Made by a program: the position numbers and the translations under genes
Virus record (IMG/VR): IMGVR_UViG_2547132417_000005
Direction: 5' to 3' (one strand)
DNA from: a virus
Taxonomy: Duplodnaviria; Heunggongvirae; Uroviricota; Caudoviricetes
DNA: 28,860 nt
Shown here: piece by piece, positions 1 to 8,166 of the stretch
Layout: every line of letters begins with the position of its first letter
How positions within the stretch are numbered: the first letter of the stretch is position 1
The notes under the pieces: generated by a model
Database searches by the model: none
What the model saw: the letters and a program-made list of their open reading frames with translations, nothing else
What the model was told of the DNA's origin: nothing

Positions 1-233
1 CAGCGGAAAGAGCGCTTCGTGCAGTCTGTCTCGGAAAGAAAAATTACGTGTTCTTCGGTAGCGATCACGGCGGCGAGCGTGGAGCACTGCTGTACGGGCT
101 GATCGGCACCTGCCGTCTGAACGGTATCGATCCGGAAGCGTATCTGCGCCATATTCTGAGCGTACTGCCGGAATGGCCCTCCAACCGTGTTGACGAACTC
201 CTGCCATGGAACGTAGTACTCACCAATAAATAA
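1..233 (+). CDS. IS66-family transposase, C-terminal fragment (5' end lies outside the window)
   Basis: Frame is open from the window start to TAA at 231-233. Translation ...LGKKNYVFFGSDHGGERGALLYGLIGTCRLNGIDPEAYLRHILSVLPEWPSNRVDELLPWN resembles the conserved C-terminus of IS66-family TnpC transposases (recalled, not searched). Confidence 0.8.
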   Translation, partial: AERALRAVCLGKKNYVFFGSDHGGERGALLYGLIGTCRLNGIDPEAYLRHILSVLPEWPSNRVDELLPWNVVLTNK

Positions 234-263
234 GCGTCAATACGGTGCTCCGTTGACGCTTAC
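1..263 (+). mobile_element. IS66-family insertion sequence, right end (partial element)
   Basis: Transposase 3' end followed by a palindromic terminal segment TAAGCGTCAA...TTGACGCTTAC ending about 263 (IS66-type ends read ...CGCTTAC / GTAAGCG...). The exact boundary is an inference. Confidence 0.55.
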
Positions 264-758
264 AAGGACTGCTGGCAAACGCCGCTTTGGCTTTTTGATG
301 CACTGGATATTGAGTTTGGATTCTGGCTGGATTCGGCAGCGAGCGACAAAAATGCTCTGTGTGCTCACTGGCTAACTGAGGCCGACGACGCGCTCAATTC
401 TGAGTGGGTAAGCCACGGTGCAATCTGGAATAACCCACCGTACAGCAATATCAGGCCGTGGGTGGAAAAAGCCGCTGAGCAGTGCATACAACAGCGACAG
501 ACGGTAGTTATGCTTGTGCCAGAGGATATGTCAGTCGGATGGTTCAGCAAGGCTCTGGAGAGTGTCGACGAAGTTCGCATTATCACTGATGGACGGATTA
601 ATTTTATCGAACCATCGACAGGGCTGGAGAAGAAGGGAAACAGCAAAGGCTCCATGCTGCTGATTTGGCGACCGTTCATCAGTCCTCGACGGATGTTTAC
701 TACCGTATCCAAAGCGGCATTGATGGCGATCGGGCAGGGCGTCAGGAGGGCGGCATGA
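264..758 (+). pseudogene. Phage N6-adenine DNA methyltransferase (Dam-like), N-terminally truncated at the IS66 junction
   Basis: Open frame ...KDCWQTPLWLFDALDIEFGFWLDSAASDKNALCAHWL...AIWNNPPYSNIRPWVEKAAEQ...VVMLVPEDMSVGWF...RINFIEP contains the NPPY catalytic motif. No ATG lies between the IS end and the motif; the first in-frame start (GTG at 462) is downstream of NPPY. Confidence 0.7.
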
Positions 759-931
759 GGCGACAGCGACGAAGTTTCACCGACATCATCTGCGAAAACT
801 GCAAATCCCTTCCAACGAAACGCTCCAGAAATAAACGCAAGCCAATCCCAAAAGAATCTGACGTAAAAACCTTCAATTACACAGCTCACCTGTGGGATAT
901 CCGGTGGCTAAGATATCGTGCGAGGAAATGA
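755..931 (+). CDS. ninE: NinE-like small protein
   Basis: ATG at 755 overlaps the methyltransferase stop (ATGA), with AGGAGG 5 nt upstream. Product [58 protein letters not shown] matches my recollection of lambda NinE. Confidence 0.75.
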
Positions 932-933
932 CA

Positions 934-1275
934 ATGGATTATTCACAGTTAAGTGATTTTGAAATTAACAGAATGGTAGGAGACATAATTTTTAAAGGCC
1001 TTTGGGCAAGTAAACCGGAAACATCAGGGAATAACACCAACAAATGGTATTACGGAAATGCTGATACAACTTTTGAGCCATTAAATCATTTGCCTGACTA
1101 CTGCAATGATCCGAGCGCTTCATGGCCGATTATTGAGAAATACAGGATTTCTATCTTAGACCAGTTAACTGAATGGTGTGTGGATGCAAAAGGCGTAAGC
1201 CCAATATTTGATACCAGACCTCTCCGCGCCGCCATGATTGTCTTTCTCCTGATGCAGGAGGCCAATAATGCTTAG
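934..1275 (+). CDS. Hypothetical nin-region phage protein (113 aa)
   Basis: ORF in the track (892-1275); the internal ATG at 934 has GAGGA 7 nt upstream. Tightly packed between ninE and the next gene. No family assigned with confidence. Confidence 0.55.
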
Positions 1276-1462
1276 CCCATCTCAATCCCTTCAATACCTG
1301 AAAGGAAGCATAGAGCGGGCTTCAATGTGCACAGAGTGGATTCTATCTAGGTTTAGCGCATACAGAAGATTGCCGGTAAAGGGCATGCCAAGCAAGTCGA
1401 TGCTGCATATGCAAAAGAATGCGCGCTGGAAGGTATGGCGAGAACACAGGTTATCTGGCTGA
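1268..1462 (+). CDS. Hypothetical small protein; N-terminus resembles NinF
   Basis: ATG at 1268 overlaps the upstream stop. N-terminus [18 protein letters not shown] resembles NinF as I recall it, but the remainder does not. Function unknown. Confidence 0.4.
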
Positions 1463-1481
1463 AAGAGGGGGTTATTAAGGC

Positions 1482-1844
1482 GTGAATACCTACAGCATCA
1501 CATTACCCTGGCCTCCGAGCAATAACCGCTACTACCGGCATAATCGCGGGCGCACGCACATCAGCGCAGAAGGGCAGGCATACCGCGATAACGTCACCCG
1601 AATCATTAAAAACGCAATGCTGGATATCGGCCTGGCTATGCCAGTGAAAATCCGTATTGAGTGCCACATGCCGGATCGCCGTCGCCGTGACCTGGATAAT
1701 CTGCAAAAAGCCGCTTTTGACGCACTCACCAAAGCAGGTTTCTGGCTGGATGATGCTCAGGTCGTTGATTACCGCGTTGTGAAGATGCCTGTTACCAAAG
1801 GTGGGAGGCTGGAACTGACCATCACCGAAATGGGGAATGAATGA
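1482..1844 (+). CDS. rusA: Holliday-junction resolvase RusA (crossover junction endodeoxyribonuclease)
   Basis: 120-aa product (GTG start) [36 protein letters not shown]...[33 protein letters not shown] is near-identical to prophage RusA as recalled. Confidence 0.9.
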
Positions 1845-1981
1845 TGTTTGAGTTTTATATGGCAGAACTTCTTCGCCACCGCTGGGGGCATCTGCGCTTA
1901 TATCGTTTCCCCGGTTCTGTTTTGACCGATTACCGAATACTGAAGAATTACGCCAAAACCCTGACAGGAGCAGGAGTATGA
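1841..1981 (+). CDS. ylcG: YlcG-like small protein (46 aa)
   Basis: Not in the ORF track (under 60 aa). ATG at 1841 overlaps the rusA stop (ATGA). Product [46 protein letters not shown] matches DLP12 YlcG as recalled, and the rusA-ylcG-Q order is the same as in DLP12. Confidence 0.6.
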
Positions 1982-2066
1982 AGTCAGAGATAACAATCAA
2001 CTAATACTGTTTTGTTGATTTTTGCTTGTAATTGGCGTTCTGGTCTGATTTTTGTGGAGTAAGTTG

Positions 2067-2450
2067 ATGCGTGATATTCAGATGGTTCTTGAGCGTTGGG
2101 GAGCGTGGGCGGCTAATAATCATGAAGATGTGACCTGGTCGTCCATTGCCGCCGGTTTTAAGGGATTAATTACTTCAAAAGTAAAATCTCGCCCGCAATG
2201 TTGTGACGATGACGCGATGATCATTTGCGGGTGCATGGCCCGTCTGAAAAAGAACAACAGCGATTTGCACGATTTATTAGTAGATTATTATGTAGTCGGT
2301 ATGACATTCATGTCACTGGCAGGTAAGCATTGCTGCTCTGATGGTTATATCGGGAAAAGGTTACAGAAGGCTGAGGGCATAATTGAAGGGATGTTAATGG
2401 CATTAGATATCCGGTTAGAGATGGATATCGTTGTTAATAACTCTAATTAA
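2067..2450 (+). CDS. quuD: Late-gene antiterminator Q (phage 82/DLP12 QuuD type)
   Basis: ATG at 2067 with GTGGAG 6 nt upstream. Product [34 protein letters not shown]...[16 protein letters not shown]... is recognised as 82-type Q. Confidence 0.85.
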
Positions 2451-2475
2451 TACGCCAATTATTTACTAAAAGTTA

Positions 2476-2502
2476 TTAAAAATGGGGCGTTGAAACGCCC
2501 CC
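2476..2502 (-). terminator. Candidate intrinsic terminator for the porin gene (minus strand)
   Basis: Hairpin GGGGCGT-tgaa-ACGCCCC at 2484-2501. On the minus strand it is followed by ATTTTTAA. Confidence 0.45.
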
Positions 2503-2589
2503 AAAAATAAAGGGTAATATATAACAGAAGGTTTGTATAGTTAGAAGCAAGGTTGTGCTTCTAAAGGAAGTGGCTTGAGGGAGCCACTT

Positions 2590-2630
2590 ATATGTTGGGG
2601 AGGCAAAGCCTCCCACAACATATCTTTTAG
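2590..2630 (+). terminator. Candidate late-operon terminator (tR'-like), possibly bidirectional
   Basis: Long near-perfect hairpin ATATGTTGGGGAGGC-aaa-GCCTCCCACAACATAT followed on the + strand by CTTTTAG. It lies downstream of Q and directly after the porin stop on the other strand. Confidence 0.4.
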
Positions 2631-2638
2631 TAATCAAA

Positions 2639-3721
2639 TTAGAACTGGTAAACCATACCTACAGCAACGATATCATCGGTAGCAACGCCAGATGCTTTCG
2701 TGAAATCGCTCTTATCAATCAGGTTGATTTTGTAGTCAACAAAAGTGGACATATTTTTGTTGAAGTAATAGGTTGCACCTACATCAACATATTCAACCAG
2801 GTCCTGATCACCCCAAACACCCAAGTCTTTTCCTTTAGAATGCAGGTAAGCAACGGATGGACGCAGGCCGAAGTCGAACTGATATTGTGCAACAGCTTCG
2901 AAGTTTTGTGCTTTGTTGGCAATATGGTTATTACCAAAAACAGTCATGTTCTGGGTTTCAGAATAGGTGGTGGCCAGATAGATGTTGTTCGCATCATATT
3001 TCAGACCAGCTGCCCATACTTCAGCATTTTGACCAGAAGCATTCAGACCGTTGTTACCGTAGATAACCTGATTATTAGTGCGATCAGATTTAGCATAGGT
3101 TGCACCCACGCCGAATCCTTCATACTCATAAGTAGTTGAGAAACCGAAACCATCGCCATTAGCTTCAGTTACTTCATTTCGGTCATTTTTGCCCTGATAC
3201 TGAGCTGCAAAGTTCAGGCCATCAACCAGACCAAAGAAGTCGTTGTTACGATAAGTTGCAACACCTGTGGTGCGACCAGTCATGAATACATCTGTTTGGG
3301 TCCAGGTATCGCCACCGAATTCTGGCAGAACGTCAGTCCACGCACCGATGTCGTATGCTACACCGTAGTTACGGCCGTAATCGATTGAGCCGTAGTCACC
3401 GAATTTCAGGCCTGCAAATGCAAGACGGGTTTTGTCTTTGGAGGAACCTTGAGATTCAGCGCGGTTGCCTTTGAATTCATATTCCCACTGACCGAAACCA
3501 GTCAGTTGATCGTTGATTTGGGTTTCACCTTTGAAGCCAAGACGGGCATAAGTAGTATCACCATCATCTGCATCATTAGAGGAGAAGTAGTGCTTAGCAT
3601 TAACTTTCCCGTACAGATCCAGCTTGTTACTGTCTTTATTATAAATTTCAGCTGCCTGAGCAGACATCGCCATCAGTACTGATGCAGCTACAGCAGAAAT
3701 TGCCACTGTTAATTTTTTCAT
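2639..3721 (-). CDS. nmpC: Outer-membrane general porin, OmpC/OmpF/NmpC (Lc) family, prophage moron
   Basis: 360-aa product with signal peptide [23 protein letters not shown]|AEIYNK, porin-like sequence throughout, and C-terminal ...VGMVYQF (terminal Phe typical of beta-barrel OMPs). Sits between Q and the holin on the opposite strand, as nmpC does in DLP12. Confidence 0.9.
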
Positions 3722-4264
3722 CGTGAGCCCTTTTTTTTGAACTATTATTAAAAAATGATGTCACTGCGCGATAAATATTCATCTAATCAATGTGATTATT
3801 TCAAGATGTAAGTTTTAGTTTCTCATTTAATTTGTGAAGTAGATCTCTATTTTTATCTGAACTTTTTCTATCGAAACCTATTTATGGCTCTTATTTGAAC
3901 AAAAATAAACCTATTAGCTAATTTATATTAATGGCTGTTATTTATGGGGGTTCTATAATTCGGCAGTTTAATTTAAATCAACTAAAAATAACCTCTGAAA
4001 TTATTTATTGGTTATTTGTTGAGGTTTTCTTATGTATTTGTGGTGGTGTTTTGAACACTCGGTAGCATTCTCATAAATATCATTCAGTGGTTTACGTACG
4101 TAAAAAATTGGTTATGCTGTTAAGAGTGGTTACTTCGTCACACAGCTTAAACCCGCCGTCGAGCTGGTTTTTCCATTTTTTGAGTCTCGATATTAGCTGA
4201 TAACTCAATACCTGAGTTATTCACTGACTCCGAGTCTGTTACGTTTCTGCTTTTTTGCGATACG
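3722..4264. promoter_or_regulatory. AT-rich intergenic region: porin promoter (minus strand) and leader to the lysis genes
   Basis: About 540 bp of strongly AT-rich sequence with no credible ORF, directly upstream of the porin start. Individual promoter elements were not mapped. Confidence 0.35.
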
Positions 4265-4309
4265 TTGTATTCCCTCAATTTACACCCGCTTTGTCTGCGA
4301 GGTGGGGTT

Positions 4310-4525
4310 ATGAAATCCATGGATAAGTTAACAACGGGTGTCGCCTATGGCACCTCAGCAGGTAGTGCCGGTTACTGGTTTTTACAGCTGCTCGATAAAG
4401 TCACGCCCTCACAGTGGGCAGCAATAGGTGTGCTGGGTAGCCTGGTATTTGGCCTGCTGACGTACCTGACAAACCTTTATTTCAAGATTAAAGAAGATAA
4501 GCGCAAGGCTGCGAGAGGTGAATAA
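4310..4525 (+). CDS. essD: Class II holin (phage 21 S-type pinholin) with dual-start motif
   Basis: Product [74 protein letters not shown] codons at 4310 and 4319 (M1 and M4) give the antiholin/holin dual start. GAGGTGGGG lies upstream. Confidence 0.85.
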
Positions 4526-5022
4526 TGCCTCCATCATTACGAAAAGCCGTTGCTGCTGCTATTGGTGGCGGAGCAATTGCTATAGCATCAGTGTTAATTA
4601 CTGGCCCAAGTGGTAACGATGGTCTGGAAGGTGTCAGCTACATACCATACAAAGATATTGTTGGTGTATGGACTGTATGTCACGGGCATACAGGAAAAGA
4701 CATCATGCTCGGTAAAACGTATACCAAAGCAGAATGCAAAGCCCTCCTGAATAAAGACCTTGCCACGGTCGCCAGACAAATTAACCCGTACATCAAAGTC
4801 GATATACCGGAAACAATGCGCGGCGCTCTTTACTCATTCGTTTACAACGTGGGTGCTGGCAATTTCAGAACATCGACGCTTCTTCGCAAAATAAACCAGG
4901 GCGATATCAAAGGCGCATGTGATCAGCTACGTCGCTGGACATATGCTGGCGGTAAGCAATGGAAAGGTCTCATGACTCGTCGTGAGATTGAGCGTGAAAT
5001 CTGTTTGTGGGGTCAGCAATGA
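4525..5022 (+). CDS. rrrD: SAR endolysin (T4-lysozyme-like muramidase with N-terminal signal-anchor-release domain)
   Basis: Start overlaps the holin stop (TAATG). N-terminal Gly/Ala-rich hydrophobic segment [18 protein letters not shown] followed by a lysozyme-like domain. A pinholin paired with a SAR endolysin is the phage 21 arrangement. Confidence 0.85.
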
Positions 5023-5456
5023 ACAGAGTAACCGCGATTATCTCCGCTCTGGTTATCTGCATCATCGTCTGCCTGTCATGGGCTGTTAATCATTACCGTG
5101 ATAACGCCATGACCTACAAAGAACAGCGCGACAAAGCCACATCCATCATCGCTGACATGCAGAAGCGTCAACGTGACGTAGCAGAACTCGATGCCAGATA
5201 TACAAAGGAGCTTGCTGATGCTAACGCGACTATCGAAAGTCTCCGTGATGATGTTTCTGCTGGGCGTAAGCGGCTGCAAGTCGCCGCCTCCTGTGCAAAG
5301 TCAAAGACCGGAGCCAGCAGCATGGGCGATGGAGAAAGCCCAAGACTTACAGCAGATGCTGAACTCAATTATTACCGTCTCCGAAGTGGAATCGACAGGA
5401 TAACCGCGCAGGTTAACTACCTGCAGGAGTACATCAGGACGCAATGTCTGAAATAA
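5019..5456 (+). CDS. rzpD: Rz i-spanin
   Basis: ATG at 5019 overlaps the endolysin stop (ATGA). Product [39 protein letters not shown]... has an N-terminal TMD and coiled-coil region, lambda Rz-like. Confidence 0.8.
5218..5403 (+). CDS. rzoD: Rz1 o-spanin lipoprotein, embedded in Rz in the +1 frame
   Basis: Embedded ORF with AAGGAG 7 nt upstream of ATG 5218. Product [36 protein letters not shown]... has a lipobox-like LLGVSGC and a Pro-rich stretch. Confidence 0.6.
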
Positions 5457-5487
5457 TTTTTTTGCAAATCACAAAGTCCATTTAATG

Positions 5488-5545
5488 AGCCTCGCGATGC
5501 GGGGCTTTTTTGCAATAAATGCGTACCGCAACGCATGTTTTTTTT
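5488..5545 (+). terminator. Tandem rho-independent terminators after the lysis cassette
   Basis: Hairpin AGCCTCGC-gat-GCGGGGCT followed by TTTTTT (5488-5511), then perfect hairpin ATGCGT-accgca-ACGCAT followed by GTTTTTTTT (5519-5545). Confidence 0.55.
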
Positions 5546-5660
5546 ACACCGAACCTGCCCCTTTGGAATGGGCCTTTGAGGATACCAGTTAGTGCTGGCG
5601 AGCCTCGGTGGGCTGGTTTCCTGTGCGGCAAAGGTTCATTTCAAATGGTAGGTAAACGTT

Positions 5661-6182
5661 ATGAATATCGTGCCACTTAATTACAAAGGTGAAATTGTCA
5701 GTTTCAACACTGATGGTTGGATCAACGTCACAGGTGTTGCTGAGAGATTTGGGAAACGCATTGATAACTGGATGCGTTTGGCAGAAACGCTTGAATACGT
5801 TCGTGCTTTAGACGAAGCGTTGACCGGGAAAGAATCTCAAATTTTACATCCCTCACAATCGAGGTATGTAAAAACCAGCAAGGCACGAAAGGACAGGGGT
5901 GGTGGTACGTGGCTACATCCAAAACTTTCAGTTGCATTTGCCCGTTGGTGTGATGCTCGTTTTGCTGTGTGGTGCGACCTGCACATTGATAGTCTGCTTC
6001 GCGGTGAACTGACTGAGCAGCAGAAATATGAGCAAGCATGTCGCATTCGCGATGACCGGAAATCAAAAGCCAGCAATGGGGCAAGAGAGATGGCTCGCTG
6101 GCGATGGGATAAGCCGGTTATTGAAGCAAATGTTGAGTACTGGCGCGAGCAACTGCAGTTGACTCTCGATATCGCGTGCTGA
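5661..6182 (+). CDS. KilA-N domain protein (phage DNA-binding / antirepressor-like)
   Basis: 173-aa ORF. The motif GGTWLHPKLSVAFARWCDARFAVWC matches the KilA-N consensus as recalled. AGGT lies 7 nt upstream of the ATG. Confidence 0.7.
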   Translation: MNIVPLNYKGEIVSFNTDGWINVTGVAERFGKRIDNWMRLAETLEYVRALDEALTGKESQILHPSQSRYVKTSKARKDRGGGTWLHPKLSVAFARWCDARFAVWCDLHIDSLLRGELTEQQKYEQACRIRDDRKSKASNGAREMARWRWDKPVIEANVEYWREQLQLTLDIAC

Positions 6183-6531
6183 TGGCAAACGCAAAACTGC
6201 GTTATCGAAAAAATCAAAGCATTACTAGAACTGAGCAACGGCTATCCATTACAAAGCCCATCTACGGGTGGGCTTGATAATGGCTTATACCCTGCACGGG
6301 ATAACTTAACTGATATCCCTTTTAACGGATAAAGGCATTCAAGCCTGACACATCATGCGCTGTATCGTCGCCGTATTCCCGTATTAACAGAGACCGTAGC
6401 CCGACGGGGAACTCCTTCTGCGCGAGTGTGCGGGAATAATCAAAAACGATGCACACCGGGGTTACCGGGTACACATATTTCATCATGCCAGCGAGTCCGG
6501 TTCTGGCACGGAAGAAACCGGACGTTATGAT

Positions 6532-6942
6532 TTAGTGCGGAAATATTTGTGTAGTGTTCTGAATGTTCTCAGTAAAGAGTAATGAATTATCAAAGGTATA
6601 GTAATACCTTTTGTTTTCGTGGATATTTGTAATCCATCTGAAAACCCCTGCTGTAGCAAGATTTTTCCTGTATTCGTAAAATGATAACTCTCCTGATTTG
6701 AATCCTTTTAAGGTGGCTTCTATAAGGCATTTATTTTTTGAAAATCTTACATTTACAACCTTACCCTGTCCTTTTATTAAAACCGTATTATCGTTTTCAA
6801 GAACAAGATGAATATTCTCTGTAGCTAAATAGTAAATGTAATGTGAGACATTGTGACGTTTTAGTTCAGAATAAAACCAGTGATAGTTTAAATTATTTCG
6901 CACTTTATCGAATATTTGTTTAAAAATGGCAACCTGAGCCAT
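6532..6942 (-). CDS. ybcV: DUF1398 (YbcV)-like prophage protein
   Basis: AT-rich minus-strand ORF. Product [58 protein letters not shown]...[36 protein letters not shown] resembles the YbcV family as recalled. Start chosen at the second ATG (GGAAGG upstream); the track start at 6957 is the alternative. Confidence 0.6.
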
Positions 6943-6998
6943 TGTAGTACCTTCCATGTGATATGAGGGGCGTAGTCTGCACGATTATCTAAATTGCT

Positions 6999-7232
6999 TC
7001 AATCTGGTCTGATCTGTTTTCTGAGCAATTCAGTAATGTCACTCTTTTCTTTGTTTGCTTCAGGAGAAACTCTTTTTTCTGAGCACAGTCTCCGGCGGCA
7101 GGCTTCAATGACCCAGGCTGAGAAATTCCCGGACCCTTTTTGATCAAGAGCGATGTTAATTTGTTCAATCATTTGGTTAGGAAAGCGGATGTTGCGGATT
7201 GTTGTTCTGCGGGTTCTGTTCTTCGTTGACAT
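6999..7232 (-). CDS. ylcI: DUF3950 (YlcI)-like small protein, also the lambda right-end minus-strand ORF
   Basis: Product MSTKNRTRRTTIRNIRFPNQMIEQINIALDQKGSGNFSAWVIEACRRRL... matches the small gene just upstream of cos in lambda/DLP12 as recalled. Confidence 0.6.
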   Translation of the reverse strand: MSTKNRTRRTTIRNIRFPNQMIEQINIALDQKGSGNFSAWVIEACRRRLCSEKRVSPEANKEKSDITELLRKQIRPD

Positions 7233-7431
7233 GAGGTTGTCCCGTATTTAGTGTCGCTGATTTGTATTGTCTGAAGTTGTTTTTACGTTAAGTTGATGCA
7301 GATCAATTAATATGATACCTGCGTCATAATTGATTATTTGACGTGGTTTGATGGCGTAGATGCACGTTGTGACATGCAGATGATAATTATTATCATTTTG
7401 CGGGTCCTTTCCGGCGATCCGACAGGTTACG

Positions 7432-7443
7432 GGGCGGCGACCT
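7432..7443. other. cos: cosN cohesive-end site (12-nt GGGCGGCGACCT)
   Basis: Exact lambda junction ...GACAGGTTACG|GGGCGGCGACCTCGCGGGTTTTCGCTATTTATG..., 178 bp upstream of Nu1. cos is internal and contiguous, so the sequence is in prophage/circular form. Confidence 0.85.
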
Positions 7444-7620
7444 CGCGGGTTTTCGCTATTTATGAAAAATTTCCGGTTTAAGGCGTTTCCGTTCTTCTTC
7501 GTCATAACTTAATGTTTTTATTTAAAATACCCTCTGAAAAGAAAGGAAACGACAGGTGCTGAAAGCGAGCTTTTTGGCCTCTGTCGTTTCCTTTCTCTGT
7601 TTTTGTCCGTGGAATGAACA
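7444..7620 (+). promoter_or_regulatory. cosB region (terminase small-subunit binding elements and IHF site) between cosN and Nu1
   Basis: Position and near-identity to the lambda left end as recalled. Individual R1-R3/I1 elements were not mapped. Confidence 0.6.
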
Positions 7621-8140
7621 ATGGAAGTCAACAAAAAGCAGCTGGCTGACATTTTCGGTGCGAGTATCCGTACCATTCAGAACTGGCAGGAACAGGGAAT
7701 GCCCGTTCTGCGAGGCGGTGGCAAGGGTAATGAGGTGCTTTATGACTCTGCCGCCGTCATAAAATGGTATGCCGAAAGGGATGCTGAAATTGAGAACGAA
7801 AAGCTGCGCCGGGAGGTTGAAGAACTGCGGCAGGCCAGCGAGGCAGATCTCCAGCCAGGAACTATTGAGTACGAACGCTATCGACTTACGCGTGCGCAGG
7901 CCGACGCACAGGAACTGAAGAATGCCAGAGACTCCGCTGAAGTGGTGGAAACCGCATTCTGTACTTTCGTGTTGTCGCGGATCGCAGGTGAAATTGCCAG
8001 TATTCTCGACGGGCTCCCCCTGTCGGTGCAGCGGCGTTTTCCGGAACTGGAAAACCGACATGTTGATTTCCTGAAACGGGATATTATCAAAGCCATGAAC
8101 AAAGCAGCCGCGCTGGATGAACTGATACCGGGGTTGCTGA

Positions 8141-8166
<26 letters not shown>
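7621..8166 (+). CDS. nu1: Terminase small subunit Nu1
   Basis: 181-aa product MEVNKKQLADIFGASIRTIQNWQEQGMPVLRGGGKGNEVLYDSAAVIKWYAERDAEIENEKLRREVEEL... is near-identical to lambda gpNu1 as recalled. Confidence 0.95.

Follow-up and report, generated by a model that had tools for sequence, protein, structure and literature searches.

A porin module probably inserted between an antiterminator Q gene and its cognate late promoter in a lambdoid phage

The window analysed here, a 28,860-nucleotide stretch of Caudoviricetes DNA (IMG/VR record IMGVR_UViG_2547132417_000005), carries a porin gene in antisense orientation between an antiterminator gene and the lysis genes. The antiterminator gene (2067-2450, plus strand; 127 aa) belongs to the Q21/Q933W family, matching PF06530 over the full profile (E 3.5e-53); its product is 80% identical to the Q of Stx phage Ss-VASD and finds only a distant match in the Q21 structures 6P18 and 6JNX (E 7.6e-7). 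Homology to the 144-aa Stx-phage Q stops near 2428, so that the last ~7 Q codons appear to be part of an insert junction. Convergent with Q at a distance of 188 bp is the porin gene (2639-3721, minus strand), which encodes a 360-aa general porin of the Lc/NmpC/OmpD type with a signal peptide. The lysis cassette (4310-5456, plus strand) comprises an S21-type pinholin, a SAR endolysin and Rz/Rz1, an assignment made from Pfam matches that agrees with the annotation of the 434B/DLP12 record; after the holin (4310-4525, plus strand), a dual-start, S21-type protein in the P21 holin S family, come a SAR-type lysozyme and Rz. These are the first late genes. Matches to Porin_1, PF06530 and P21 holin S thus bear out the gene order proposed in an earlier sequence-only reading, which had placed an antisense porin between Q and the holin.

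The arrangement is already known, having been on record since PA-2 lc and DLP12 nmpC. The order Q, antisense porin, lysis genes is common to PA-2, 434B/DLP12, ev099 and 80 of the 80 IMG/VR loci with this Q (order being scored where the DNA reaches past the Q stop; three of these loci end in or just after the hairpin region described below), and plaque-forming phages that have it include PA-2, ev099, the PhiR series and 434B carrying the DLP12 segment. PA-2 lc and DLP12 nmpC (the qsr' region of K-12) share with the window the succession of Q, antisense porin, S21-type holin, endolysin and Rz, with Q DNA ~100% identical, the hairpin region 95% and the late promoter cassette 99-100%, and with a porin that has its own CRP/OmpR-regulated promoter (PA-2 record; PMC11677980). 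The porin DNA itself is 88-89% identical, the allele there encoding 365 aa and that in the window 360 aa; in K-12 the porin contains IS5, whereas the porin of the window does not.

The porin is lysogenic-conversion cargo. Residues 29-360 match Porin_1 at profile positions 1-337, a full-length 16-strand general porin domain (E 3.6e-152), and the N-terminus agrees with the signal peptide that the PA-2 record gives. Compared with PA-2 lc and with phage and prophage copies, the gene has 88-100% DNA identity; its product is 76-80% identical, by amino acid, to porins encoded on the chromosomes of Citrobacter, Salmonella and Enterobacter. Homology of the flanks to the chromosomal ompD-type loci of these three genera, looked for as an origin of the flanks, was not found. 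Upstream of the gene on its own strand lies a regulatory region (3722-4089, minus strand) with a GC content of 28%, as against 44% in the porin, 42% in 4090-4309 and 54% in the whole window; to judge from its composition and from the parallels in PA-2 and K-12, it is predicted to hold the porin's own promoter. What had been described as a 540-bp AT-rich upstream region is therefore AT-rich over 3722-4089, while the remainder, 4090-4309, comprises the holin leader preceded by the late promoter cassette. The PA-2 record has a CRP site annotated at a position equivalent to ~3830-3850 of the window. The K-12 nmpC promoter, whose start site has been determined by 5' RACE, is no more than ~200 bp from the ATG; it is regulated by CRP, OmpR and IHF and is active without induction (PMC11677980).

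These properties fit those of a moron. The composition of the porin is unlike that of the surrounding phage DNA; the elements that flank it, Q and the putative late promoter pR', are adjacent in 26 related contigs, Stx phages among them; and this copy has, as predicted in silico, its own promoter region and its own terminator. The stretch ~2429-4089 is best explained as a self-contained lysogenic-conversion module in which the porin gene is accompanied by a regulated, AT-rich promoter region of its own and by a structured 3'UTR that ends in its own terminator.

Four hairpins after Q had been noticed from the sequence, and folding of 2451-2640 recovers all four, at 2484-2501, 2541-2565, 2568-2589 and 2590-2630. 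The plus strand folds at -71.6 kcal/mol (z -8.1) and the minus strand at -67.5 kcal/mol (z -9.3); none of 200 shuffles folds as well. The hairpin at 2484-2501, which has the form GGGGCG-TTTC-AACGCCCC followed by ATTTTT on the minus strand, is predicted by terminator scan and folds to be an intrinsic terminator of the porin mRNA; its T-tract stands on the minus strand only, and the plus strand continues with CAAAAATAAAG. The long hairpin (2590-2636 with its tail, plus strand) has 15 bp and one bulge and runs into CTTTTAG, the T-run being T5 in many relatives; from its fold it is a candidate plus-strand terminator, which would end Q-operon transcription just ahead of the porin stop codon. Both the minus-strand U-tract and the plus-strand CTTTTAG had been reported before and are present. 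The bidirectional terminator arrangement suggested on that basis survives in that terminator-like hairpins occur for both strands, and fails in that these are separate hairpins, none of which is bidirectional singly. The cluster is thus best read from the folds as a probable convergent stop zone of separate hairpins: a predicted porin 3'UTR with its terminator, plus a weaker putative terminator of the opposite strand that would end Q-operon transcription. Because most relatives lack an intact copy of the 10-bp inverted repeat closing the cluster (2463-2472 with 2624-2633), this repeat was treated as chance.

The two stable hairpins between these putative terminators (2541-2565 and 2568-2589) fall in the predicted porin 3'UTR, where they may serve in mRNA stabilisation, as a transcription barrier, or both; the sequence of 2541-2589 is conserved at 90-100% across 82 loci. 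Such conservation invites the question of whether the cluster encodes a functional RNA, for example an Hfq-binding sRNA that derives from the porin 3'UTR and has its 3' end at the 2501->2484 terminator. The 3'UTR, about 160 nt of structured sequence, does end in a GC-rich hairpin with U5, and it is co-inherited with the porin even in E. albertii, where the long hairpin 2590-2636 shows one compensatory change from C-G to U-A. Against this, covariation in the cluster is absent among 27 variants, several of whose changes weaken stems, Rfam gives no match in 1800-4600 at E <= 1, and no expression evidence was found; we regard an RNA of this kind as unlikely. The E. albertii locus is a remnant that has kept the porin and the hairpins, and its homology to the porin module stops just past the T-tract of the minus-strand terminator.

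Downstream of the porin, 138 bp ahead of the holin and 1.65 kb from Q, lies a cassette (4090-4172, plus strand) whose counterpart in Stx phages 06-3462 and Ss-VASD, by alignment, is the pR' promoter annotated there together with the first terminator. The alignment gives a candidate late promoter pR' at 4091-4118, with TTTACG (4091-4096) as its -35 and TATGCT (4113-4118) as its -10 element and a predicted start at ~4125. Eight of its 12 positions match the sigma-70 consensus, and a consensus promoter scan missed it. The 16-bp spacer contains, at 4093-4108, the palindrome TACGTACGTA and an A-tract, a candidate Q-binding element in view of its co-variation with Q clade. Downstream, the relatives' alignment delimits a conserved initial transcribed region (4121-4172, plus strand) consisting of TAAGAGTGGTTAC..CAC, a small hairpin at 4126-4141, and then a terminator hairpin with T5. 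Support for the assignment comes from Sakai Sp5, whose equivalent cassette contains the Sakai Stx-prophage late start mapped by dRNA-seq and in which the start predicted from the same promoter lies 258 nt before the end of the T-tract of the second terminator; the Sakai pR' transcript, mapped by dRNA-seq and Term-seq, is 258 nt long (PMC7547250). We counted this agreement in favor of the cassette as a late promoter.

The position of the cassette bears directly on the proposal that Q-modified late transcripts can reach the lysis and structural genes only by crossing the porin gene antisense. A pR'-like cassette of the Stx type downstream of the porin contradicts that proposal, and its placement 138 bp ahead of the holin fits a separate late promoter immediately upstream of the holin, the first half of the observation named beforehand as telling against it, the second half being that no transcription crosses the porin.

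Spelled out, that proposal would place the late promoter and Q-utilisation site right after Q (2451-2540), with Q-modified polymerase crossing the porin antisense over 1.6 kb to the holin and the hairpins acting as its terminators, in the manner of lambda 6S RNA. In lambda, 21 and the Stx phages pR' does directly follow Q; TTGAAA (2490-2495) and TAATAT (2515-2520), followed by three hairpins and a T-run, superficially resemble a promoter-plus-terminator unit; and a crossing of 1.6 kb is in principle feasible for Q-modified polymerase. However, the two hexamers are 19 bp apart and went uncalled in the promoter scan, which found no plus-strand promoter-like site anywhere in 2451-2640. Its -35 sits in the loop of the minus-strand terminator and varies in close relatives (TTGAGA, TTGCAA and, in E. 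albertii, TAGAAA), and the hairpin cluster travels with the porin, not with Q. Nor does 2451-2540 resemble this Q clade's cognate cassette: the spacer palindrome and the conserved initial-transcribed motif each occur once in the window, both within ~4090-4141, and no second copy of the cassette lies next to Q. A late start near Q thus appears highly improbable.

With the late promoter placed downstream of the porin, the details of its initial transcribed region deserve some attention. In most relatives the terminator stem is ACCCGC/GCGGGT with a loop of N6 and a tail of T5-7, and variation in the loop preserves the stem. The predicted promoter-proximal terminator hairpin of this allele (4143-4166, plus strand; T5 at 4168-4172) carries G4165T, which produces a C-U mismatch and a weaker alternative stem; its predicted energy is -8.4 kcal/mol, versus -13.9 kcal/mol, and is no better than that of shuffles. 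The window and PA-2 have this allele in common, and DLP12/434B do not have it. Terminator scan and folds gave no evident second terminator between pR' and the holin. In Stx phages, the mapped 3' end lies at +258 and not at the first hairpin, to which that of the window is homologous (PMC7547250), so the efficiency of the first hairpin as a terminator is uncertain. Of two candidates for a sigma-dependent pause element, TAAGAG overlaps the predicted start and TACTTC occupies +7 to +12; both match a -10 element poorly, and the Stx phages have TACATT at the second position. TAAGAG as a pause element by analogy with TAAGCT of phage 21 was rejected, since the Sakai 258-nt geometry puts the start inside the motif. 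A CAP site assigned in 1986 to the conserved initial transcribed region (PA-2 record) was likewise not adopted, as only one half-site matches. Between the cassette and the holin lies a leader (4173-4309, plus strand) in which a hairpin is predicted to form over the ribosome-binding site; it is 87-100% identical in relatives, with other lysis leaders in its place in L085/L086 and SfII. In DLP12, a lux reporter is driven by a fragment that spans -121 to +650 relative to the start of the lysis operon, and this operon is reported to respond to prophage Q (PMC7918800).

Comparison with better-known late regions helps to place the cassette. The Stx phages (933W, H-19B, Sakai Sp5/Sp15), which combine a Q933-type Q, 80% identical to that of the window, with pR', StxS RNA and tR', share the -35 TTTACG, a related spacer palindrome with A-tract, TAAGAGTGGTTAC, and a GC hairpin with T-tract. 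They differ in that the last Q codons overlap pR' (gap 17-18 nt), in that there is a second terminator at +258, and in the disposition of cargo, which there (methylase, tRNAs, stx) is sense, downstream of pR' and Q-controlled, whereas that of the window is antisense and upstream of pR'. Phage 21 has a Q of the same Pfam family and a lysis cassette of the same type, and the layout in its curated record, a QBE in the promoter spacer and a terminator within +50, is that predicted for the window. Its Q is only distantly related to that of the window (E 7.6e-7, from 6P18 and 6JNX), and abuts pR' without a porin; its QBE occupies the same spacer position as the palindrome and A-tract but consists of two direct 8-bp repeats, whereas the candidate element in the window is a 10-bp palindrome and not a direct repeat.

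Cargo in comparable positions is also instructive. Morons of the lambda bor type are likewise antisense, lysogen-expressed outer-membrane cargo near the lysis genes; bor, however, lies downstream of pR' and is therefore crossed antisense by late transcripts, whereas the porin of the window lies upstream. The window has a bor-like case of its own at 6532-7505. Shigella phage SfII has a same-family Q of 42% identity and, 1.7 kb away, a pR' cassette of 89% identity, with antisense cargo (genes 49/50) between them. In place of a porin, this cargo is a candidate defence system of two genes (PADLOC PDC-M53A), and the holin is of class I.

A survey of relatives extends the pattern. The cassette keeps 96-100% identity among 82 loci with this Q, including those in which the porin-upstream region (87-93%) and the leader (86-87%) have diverged. 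In 78 distinct contexts the conserved stretch extends from ~4095 to 4172, with a collapse of conservation on either side, although conservation of the motif 4121-4141, which served as the search pattern, is there by construction. A Q of this family lies upstream of the cassette and on the same strand in 101 of the 101 contigs with enough upstream DNA, the distance being 5-41 nt in 26 of them and 627-2462 nt in the other 75. Gaps of the latter kind are filled by low-GC cargo that is nearly always antisense, the porin being one such cargo; other occupants are lipoproteins and candidate anti-phage systems (PDC-S20, PDC-M53A and PDC-M68A), with PADLOC matching 3 of 10 cargo proteins. The 10-bp spacer palindrome is specific to each Q clade (for example, TACGTACGTA vs GCGTACGC) and is identical in adjacent and separated configurations; Q clade and palindrome being physically linked, the association could partly reflect common descent and not selection.

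Taken together, these observations make it probable that a porin module has been inserted between the Q ORF and Q's cognate late promoter, and that the late transcript begins downstream of the porin. The early rightward operon would supply Q. Being diffusible, this protein could act at a distance of 1.65 kb downstream from its gene, on RNA polymerase at pR' (4091-4118, start ~4125); the modified polymerase would then pass the promoter-proximal terminator (~4143-4172) and proceed into the holin, endolysin, Rz, and packaging and structural genes. With pR' downstream of the porin, the late transcript need never cross it. On the other side of the module, the minus-strand terminator (2501->2484 with U5) would end the porin mRNA and the long plus-strand hairpin (2590-2630 with U4-5) unmodified Q-operon transcription, so that the cluster 2484-2630 may keep the convergent Q and porin transcripts apart. 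We infer promoter activity, Q dependence and termination efficiencies in this phage from alignments and folds.

A further kind of crossing, additional to late transcription from pR' and not an alternative to it, deserves consideration. In lambda, N-modified pR transcription resists terminators and runs on beyond Q; comparable N-type antiterminated read-through from the early operon would cross the porin antisense in lytic growth, damping porin expression and adding some Q-independent late transcription. Lambda biology leads one to expect it, Q and the porin converge across only 188 bp, and the predicted plus-strand terminator, having a U4 tract, is a modest one. The window does not include the immunity and N regions, however, and in uninduced K-12 a strong terminator put into the nmpC/quuD spacer had no detectable effect, a result that is silent on induced cells (PMC11677980). 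Read-through of this sort is possible but rather doubtful.

The survey, based on about 100 contigs, suggests a broader reading, which we offer tentatively and at somewhat less than even confidence: the junction between the Q ORF and the late promoter may be a recurrent cargo insertion hotspot in lambdoid phages with Q21/Q933W-family antiterminators. Cargo there would be lysogen-expressed, 0.6-2.5 kb, low-GC and nearly always antisense, with sense cargo (stx, methylase) downstream of pR'; the promoter would be preserved from ~-37 on, and the clade-specific 10-bp palindrome would mark the cognate Q site. If this reading is true, these phages would have a symmetric Q-binding element, unlike phage 21. 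We found nothing specific in the literature describing such a hotspot between Q and pR'.

For this locus the value of the analysis is mainly corrective, in that the porin appears to be insulated from the late operon and not embedded in it; models in which late transcripts silence the porin by antisense, or in which the porin is an obstacle to late transcription, are not needed. Annotation pipelines that place pR' right after Q would put the late promoter in the wrong position in E. coli prophages of this large group, and its placement matters for predicting which cargo is Q-controlled (like stx) and which is lysogen-expressed. Antisense cargo upstream of pR' and sense cargo downstream may offer a simple reading rule for lambdoid late-region mosaics, and the gap between Q and pR' would be a place to search for prophage-borne defence genes.

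The window covers the late-control region of an E. coli phage or prophage of the lambdoid type; over 400-6100 the fetched part of phage ev099 is 99.6% identical to it. The genes rusA (1482-1844), ylcG (1841-1981) and Q, the late antiterminator gene (2067-2450, plus strand; PF06530, E 3.5e-53), are followed by an antisense porin gene (2639-3721, minus strand; full-length Porin_1, E 3.6e-152), an S21-type holin (4310-4525, plus strand), a SAR-type endolysin (4525-5022), Rz (5019-5456) and, farther downstream, the Nu1 terminase gene (7621-8166). PF06530 is the Q21/Q933W family (Q21 structure paper), and the window's Q matches the Q21 structures distantly. The sequence-only reading had placed a porin antisense between Q and the holin, with hairpins after Q, and both the Porin_1 match and folding confirm this. 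Its description of the 540 bp upstream of the porin as AT-rich applies to 3722-4089 (28% GC) but not to 4090-4309 (42% GC).

The same reading had a Q-modified late transcript start near Q and cross the porin. A sensitive DNA search with 4060-4320 matched 355 phage records, the majority over 4090-4172 only at ~76-77% identity, and these matches coincide exactly with the annotated late promoter on which Q acts (pR') and first terminator that Stx phages carry where their Q gene ends. In alignment, the window and the Stx phages have in common the -35 TTTACG, the spacer CGTAAAAA, the block TAAGAGTGGTTAC and a GC-rich hairpin with a T-tract after it; the -10 is TATGCT in the window and TATCAT in the Stx phages, whose Q is 80% identical to the window's and diverges only past residue 120. 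For Sakai Sp5, TATCAT predicts a start 258 nt before the T-tract end of the second downstream terminator, and dRNA-seq with Term-seq gave a pR' transcript of 258 nt (PMC7547250); because these lengths agree, the annotated Stx pR' is the experimentally mapped promoter. The window's pR' candidate is a modest match to consensus. The conserved motif at the start of the late transcript and the spacer palindrome occur once each in the window, both at 4089-4141. With a homologous pR' at 4090-4172, past the porin, and a promoter scan finding nothing promoter-like on the plus strand between Q and porin, the proposed porin-crossing transcript from near Q is not upheld.

On the best reading of these sequences, the porin is a moron that entered between codon ~121 of Q and the -35 of pR'. 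Q would work in trans on pR', with late transcription beginning downstream of the porin. Reports on DLP12 fit this: a fragment spanning -121 to +650 about the start of the lysis operon drives a reporter, and the operon is reported to respond to prophage Q (PMC7918800); the nmpC promoter, with a mapped start site, is active without induction, and a strong terminator put into the spacer between nmpC and quuD made no detectable difference (PMC11677980). Phage 434B fits likewise: it has the DLP12 segment, IS5 in the porin included, and is plaque-forming. Antiterminated read-through from the early operon may still transcribe the porin antisense.

Comparison with relatives delimits the cassette (pR', initial transcribed region and promoter-proximal terminator; 4090-4172). 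Eighty IMG/VR contigs were fetched by the window's Q (99-100% identical), and hairpins, porin, AT-rich region and cassette follow in that order in every one reaching far enough past Q (three loci stop too near Q to show it). Cassette identity stays at 96-100% even in loci whose porin-upstream region (87-93%) and leader (86-87%) have diverged, and in two contigs it is joined to different, Stx-like downstream sequence. An IMG/VR search with the motif TAAGAGTGGTTACNTNGNCAC returned at least 119 contigs; a Q of the window's family lies upstream on the same strand in 101 of 101 contexts with enough upstream DNA, ending 5-41 nt from the motif in 26 and 627-2462 nt in 75. Across 78 distinct contexts, motif-anchored conservation runs from ~4095 to 4172 and collapses on either side; that of the motif is by construction, as it was the search pattern, and that of spacer and terminator is not.

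The pR' spacer (4093-4108; equivalent positions in comparison loci L003-L206) holds a 10-bp palindrome and then an A-tract. The palindrome differs between Q clades and is constant within each, with Q as near as 5 nt or as far off as 2.4 kb: TACGTACGTA in the window's clade (Q-to-motif about 1670-1690 nt), TACGATCGTA in the Stx-phage clade (17-18 nt), GCGTACGC in the SfII-like clade (1117-2462 nt), GCGGTCCGC in two related clades (40 nt in one, 861-2251 nt in the other) and TTCGTTACGAA in another clade pair (36 and 1580 nt). In a curated phage 21 record, the Q-binding element known from structures lies in the same spacer and the terminator ends at +50; the layout is therefore the family's. The palindrome is a candidate Q site; it is symmetric, in contrast to the direct repeat of phage 21, and the association with Q clade could partly reflect linkage.

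In the promoter-proximal terminator (4143-4172), position 4165 is T, as against G in most relatives (GAGCTGG vs GAGCGGG), which gives a C-U mismatch, a predicted fold of -8.4 vs -13.9 kcal/mol and an alternative CAGCUU/GAGCUG stem. Of ~105 porin-type copies, 37 share this allele, PA-2's among them; other 3'-arm variants are GTGGG and GCAGG. No second terminator ahead of the holin was apparent by terminator scan or leader folding. In Stx phages the first GC hairpin with T7 (~+27 to +49) is annotated as a possible terminator (L088, Sakai Sp5, 770-796; L003, 1262-1284), and Term-seq puts the 3' end of the Stx pR' transcript at +258, not at this homologous hairpin (PMC7547250); either it terminates poorly or a ~50-nt product went undetected. 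A predicted 9-bp hairpin at 4285-4312 covers the ribosome-binding site just 5' of the dual-start (Met1/Met4) holin, reminiscent of the structure setting the holin/antiholin ratio in lambda S.

Folding of 2451-2640 recovers the stacked hairpins claimed after Q, at 2484-2501, 2541-2565, 2568-2589 and 2590-2630 (z = -8.1 plus strand, -9.3 minus strand; 0/200 shuffles as good). The first, terminator-like by scan, has ATTTTT after it on the minus strand; after the last comes CTTTTAG on the plus strand. The suggested bidirectional terminator survives in that each strand has a terminator-like hairpin, but none of the four serves both. An E. albertii prophage remnant retains porin and hairpin region through the minus-strand terminator T-tract, beyond which lie unrelated chromosomal genes; the cluster is therefore assigned to the porin unit, as its predicted ~160-nt structured 3'UTR and terminator. 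The long hairpin, which with its T4-5 run sits directly at the porin stop codon, shows one compensatory C-G to U-A change against that remnant, and is a plausible candidate plus-strand terminator for unmodified transcription exiting Q. Among 27 close variants the cluster showed no covariation, and its outer 10-bp inverted repeat is mostly broken. No flank homology was found between the phage porin module and chromosomal ompD-type porins (76-80% identity). In the E. albertii locus just described (L226, NBRC 107761; 1364-2680), the porin shares 90% identity with the window's and, together with 3'UTR hairpins and terminator, adjoins ordinary chromosomal genes, with a Bor/Iss-like lipoprotein gene upstream and no Q or late cassette near; the locus is probably what is left of a decayed prophage, with the porin unit retained.

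A second accessory region (5457-7620), from Rz to the Nu1 gene, carries a KilA-N protein (5661-6182, plus strand) and minus-strand DUF1398 (6532-6957), DUF3950 (6999-7232) and 85-aa (7248-7505) ORFs. As these three sit in the late operon, late transcripts would cross them antisense, as they do lambda bor. At the window's left end, an IS66-family transposase C-terminal fragment (48-233; apparent IS end ~262) precedes a Dam methyltransferase ORF (462-758) that covers profile positions 77-167 only and reads as 5'-truncated, which suggests an IS insertion in a phage dam gene.

The long gaps between Q and pR' (627-2462 nt) have 31-45% GC. In 21/23 representative size classes every substantial reading frame in them is a minus-strand one, and sense orientation was seen for two cargo types (L096, L178). 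Cargo includes the porin (its insert is window 2429-4089), lipoproteins, a KAP-type NTPase (PADLOC candidate PDC-S20), the SfII 49/50 pair (PDC-M53A), an HNH-like protein (PDC-M68A) and several further proteins without assignment. Three loci (L131, L092, L194) encode a sense 350-aa DNA methyltransferase (DPPY motif) ~500-1600 nt past the motif, between promoter-proximal terminator and S21-type holin and inside the late operon, like stx in Stx phages.

Both the gene arrangement, present in PA-2 lc (GenBank J02580, a 1980s deposition) and DLP12 nmpC, and the late cassette, the same in the 933W/H-19B group, are already known. From the compared sequences (L089-L206), the Q/pR' junction may be a hotspot for low-GC, nearly always antisense cargo of 0.6-2.5 kb, with sense cargo such as stx or the 350-aa methyltransferase downstream of pR' and a clade-specific palindrome in the promoter spacer; no description of this general pattern was found in the literature, to which access was limited. 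The porin feature itself is known; the comparative pattern emerged as a side result of moderate interest.
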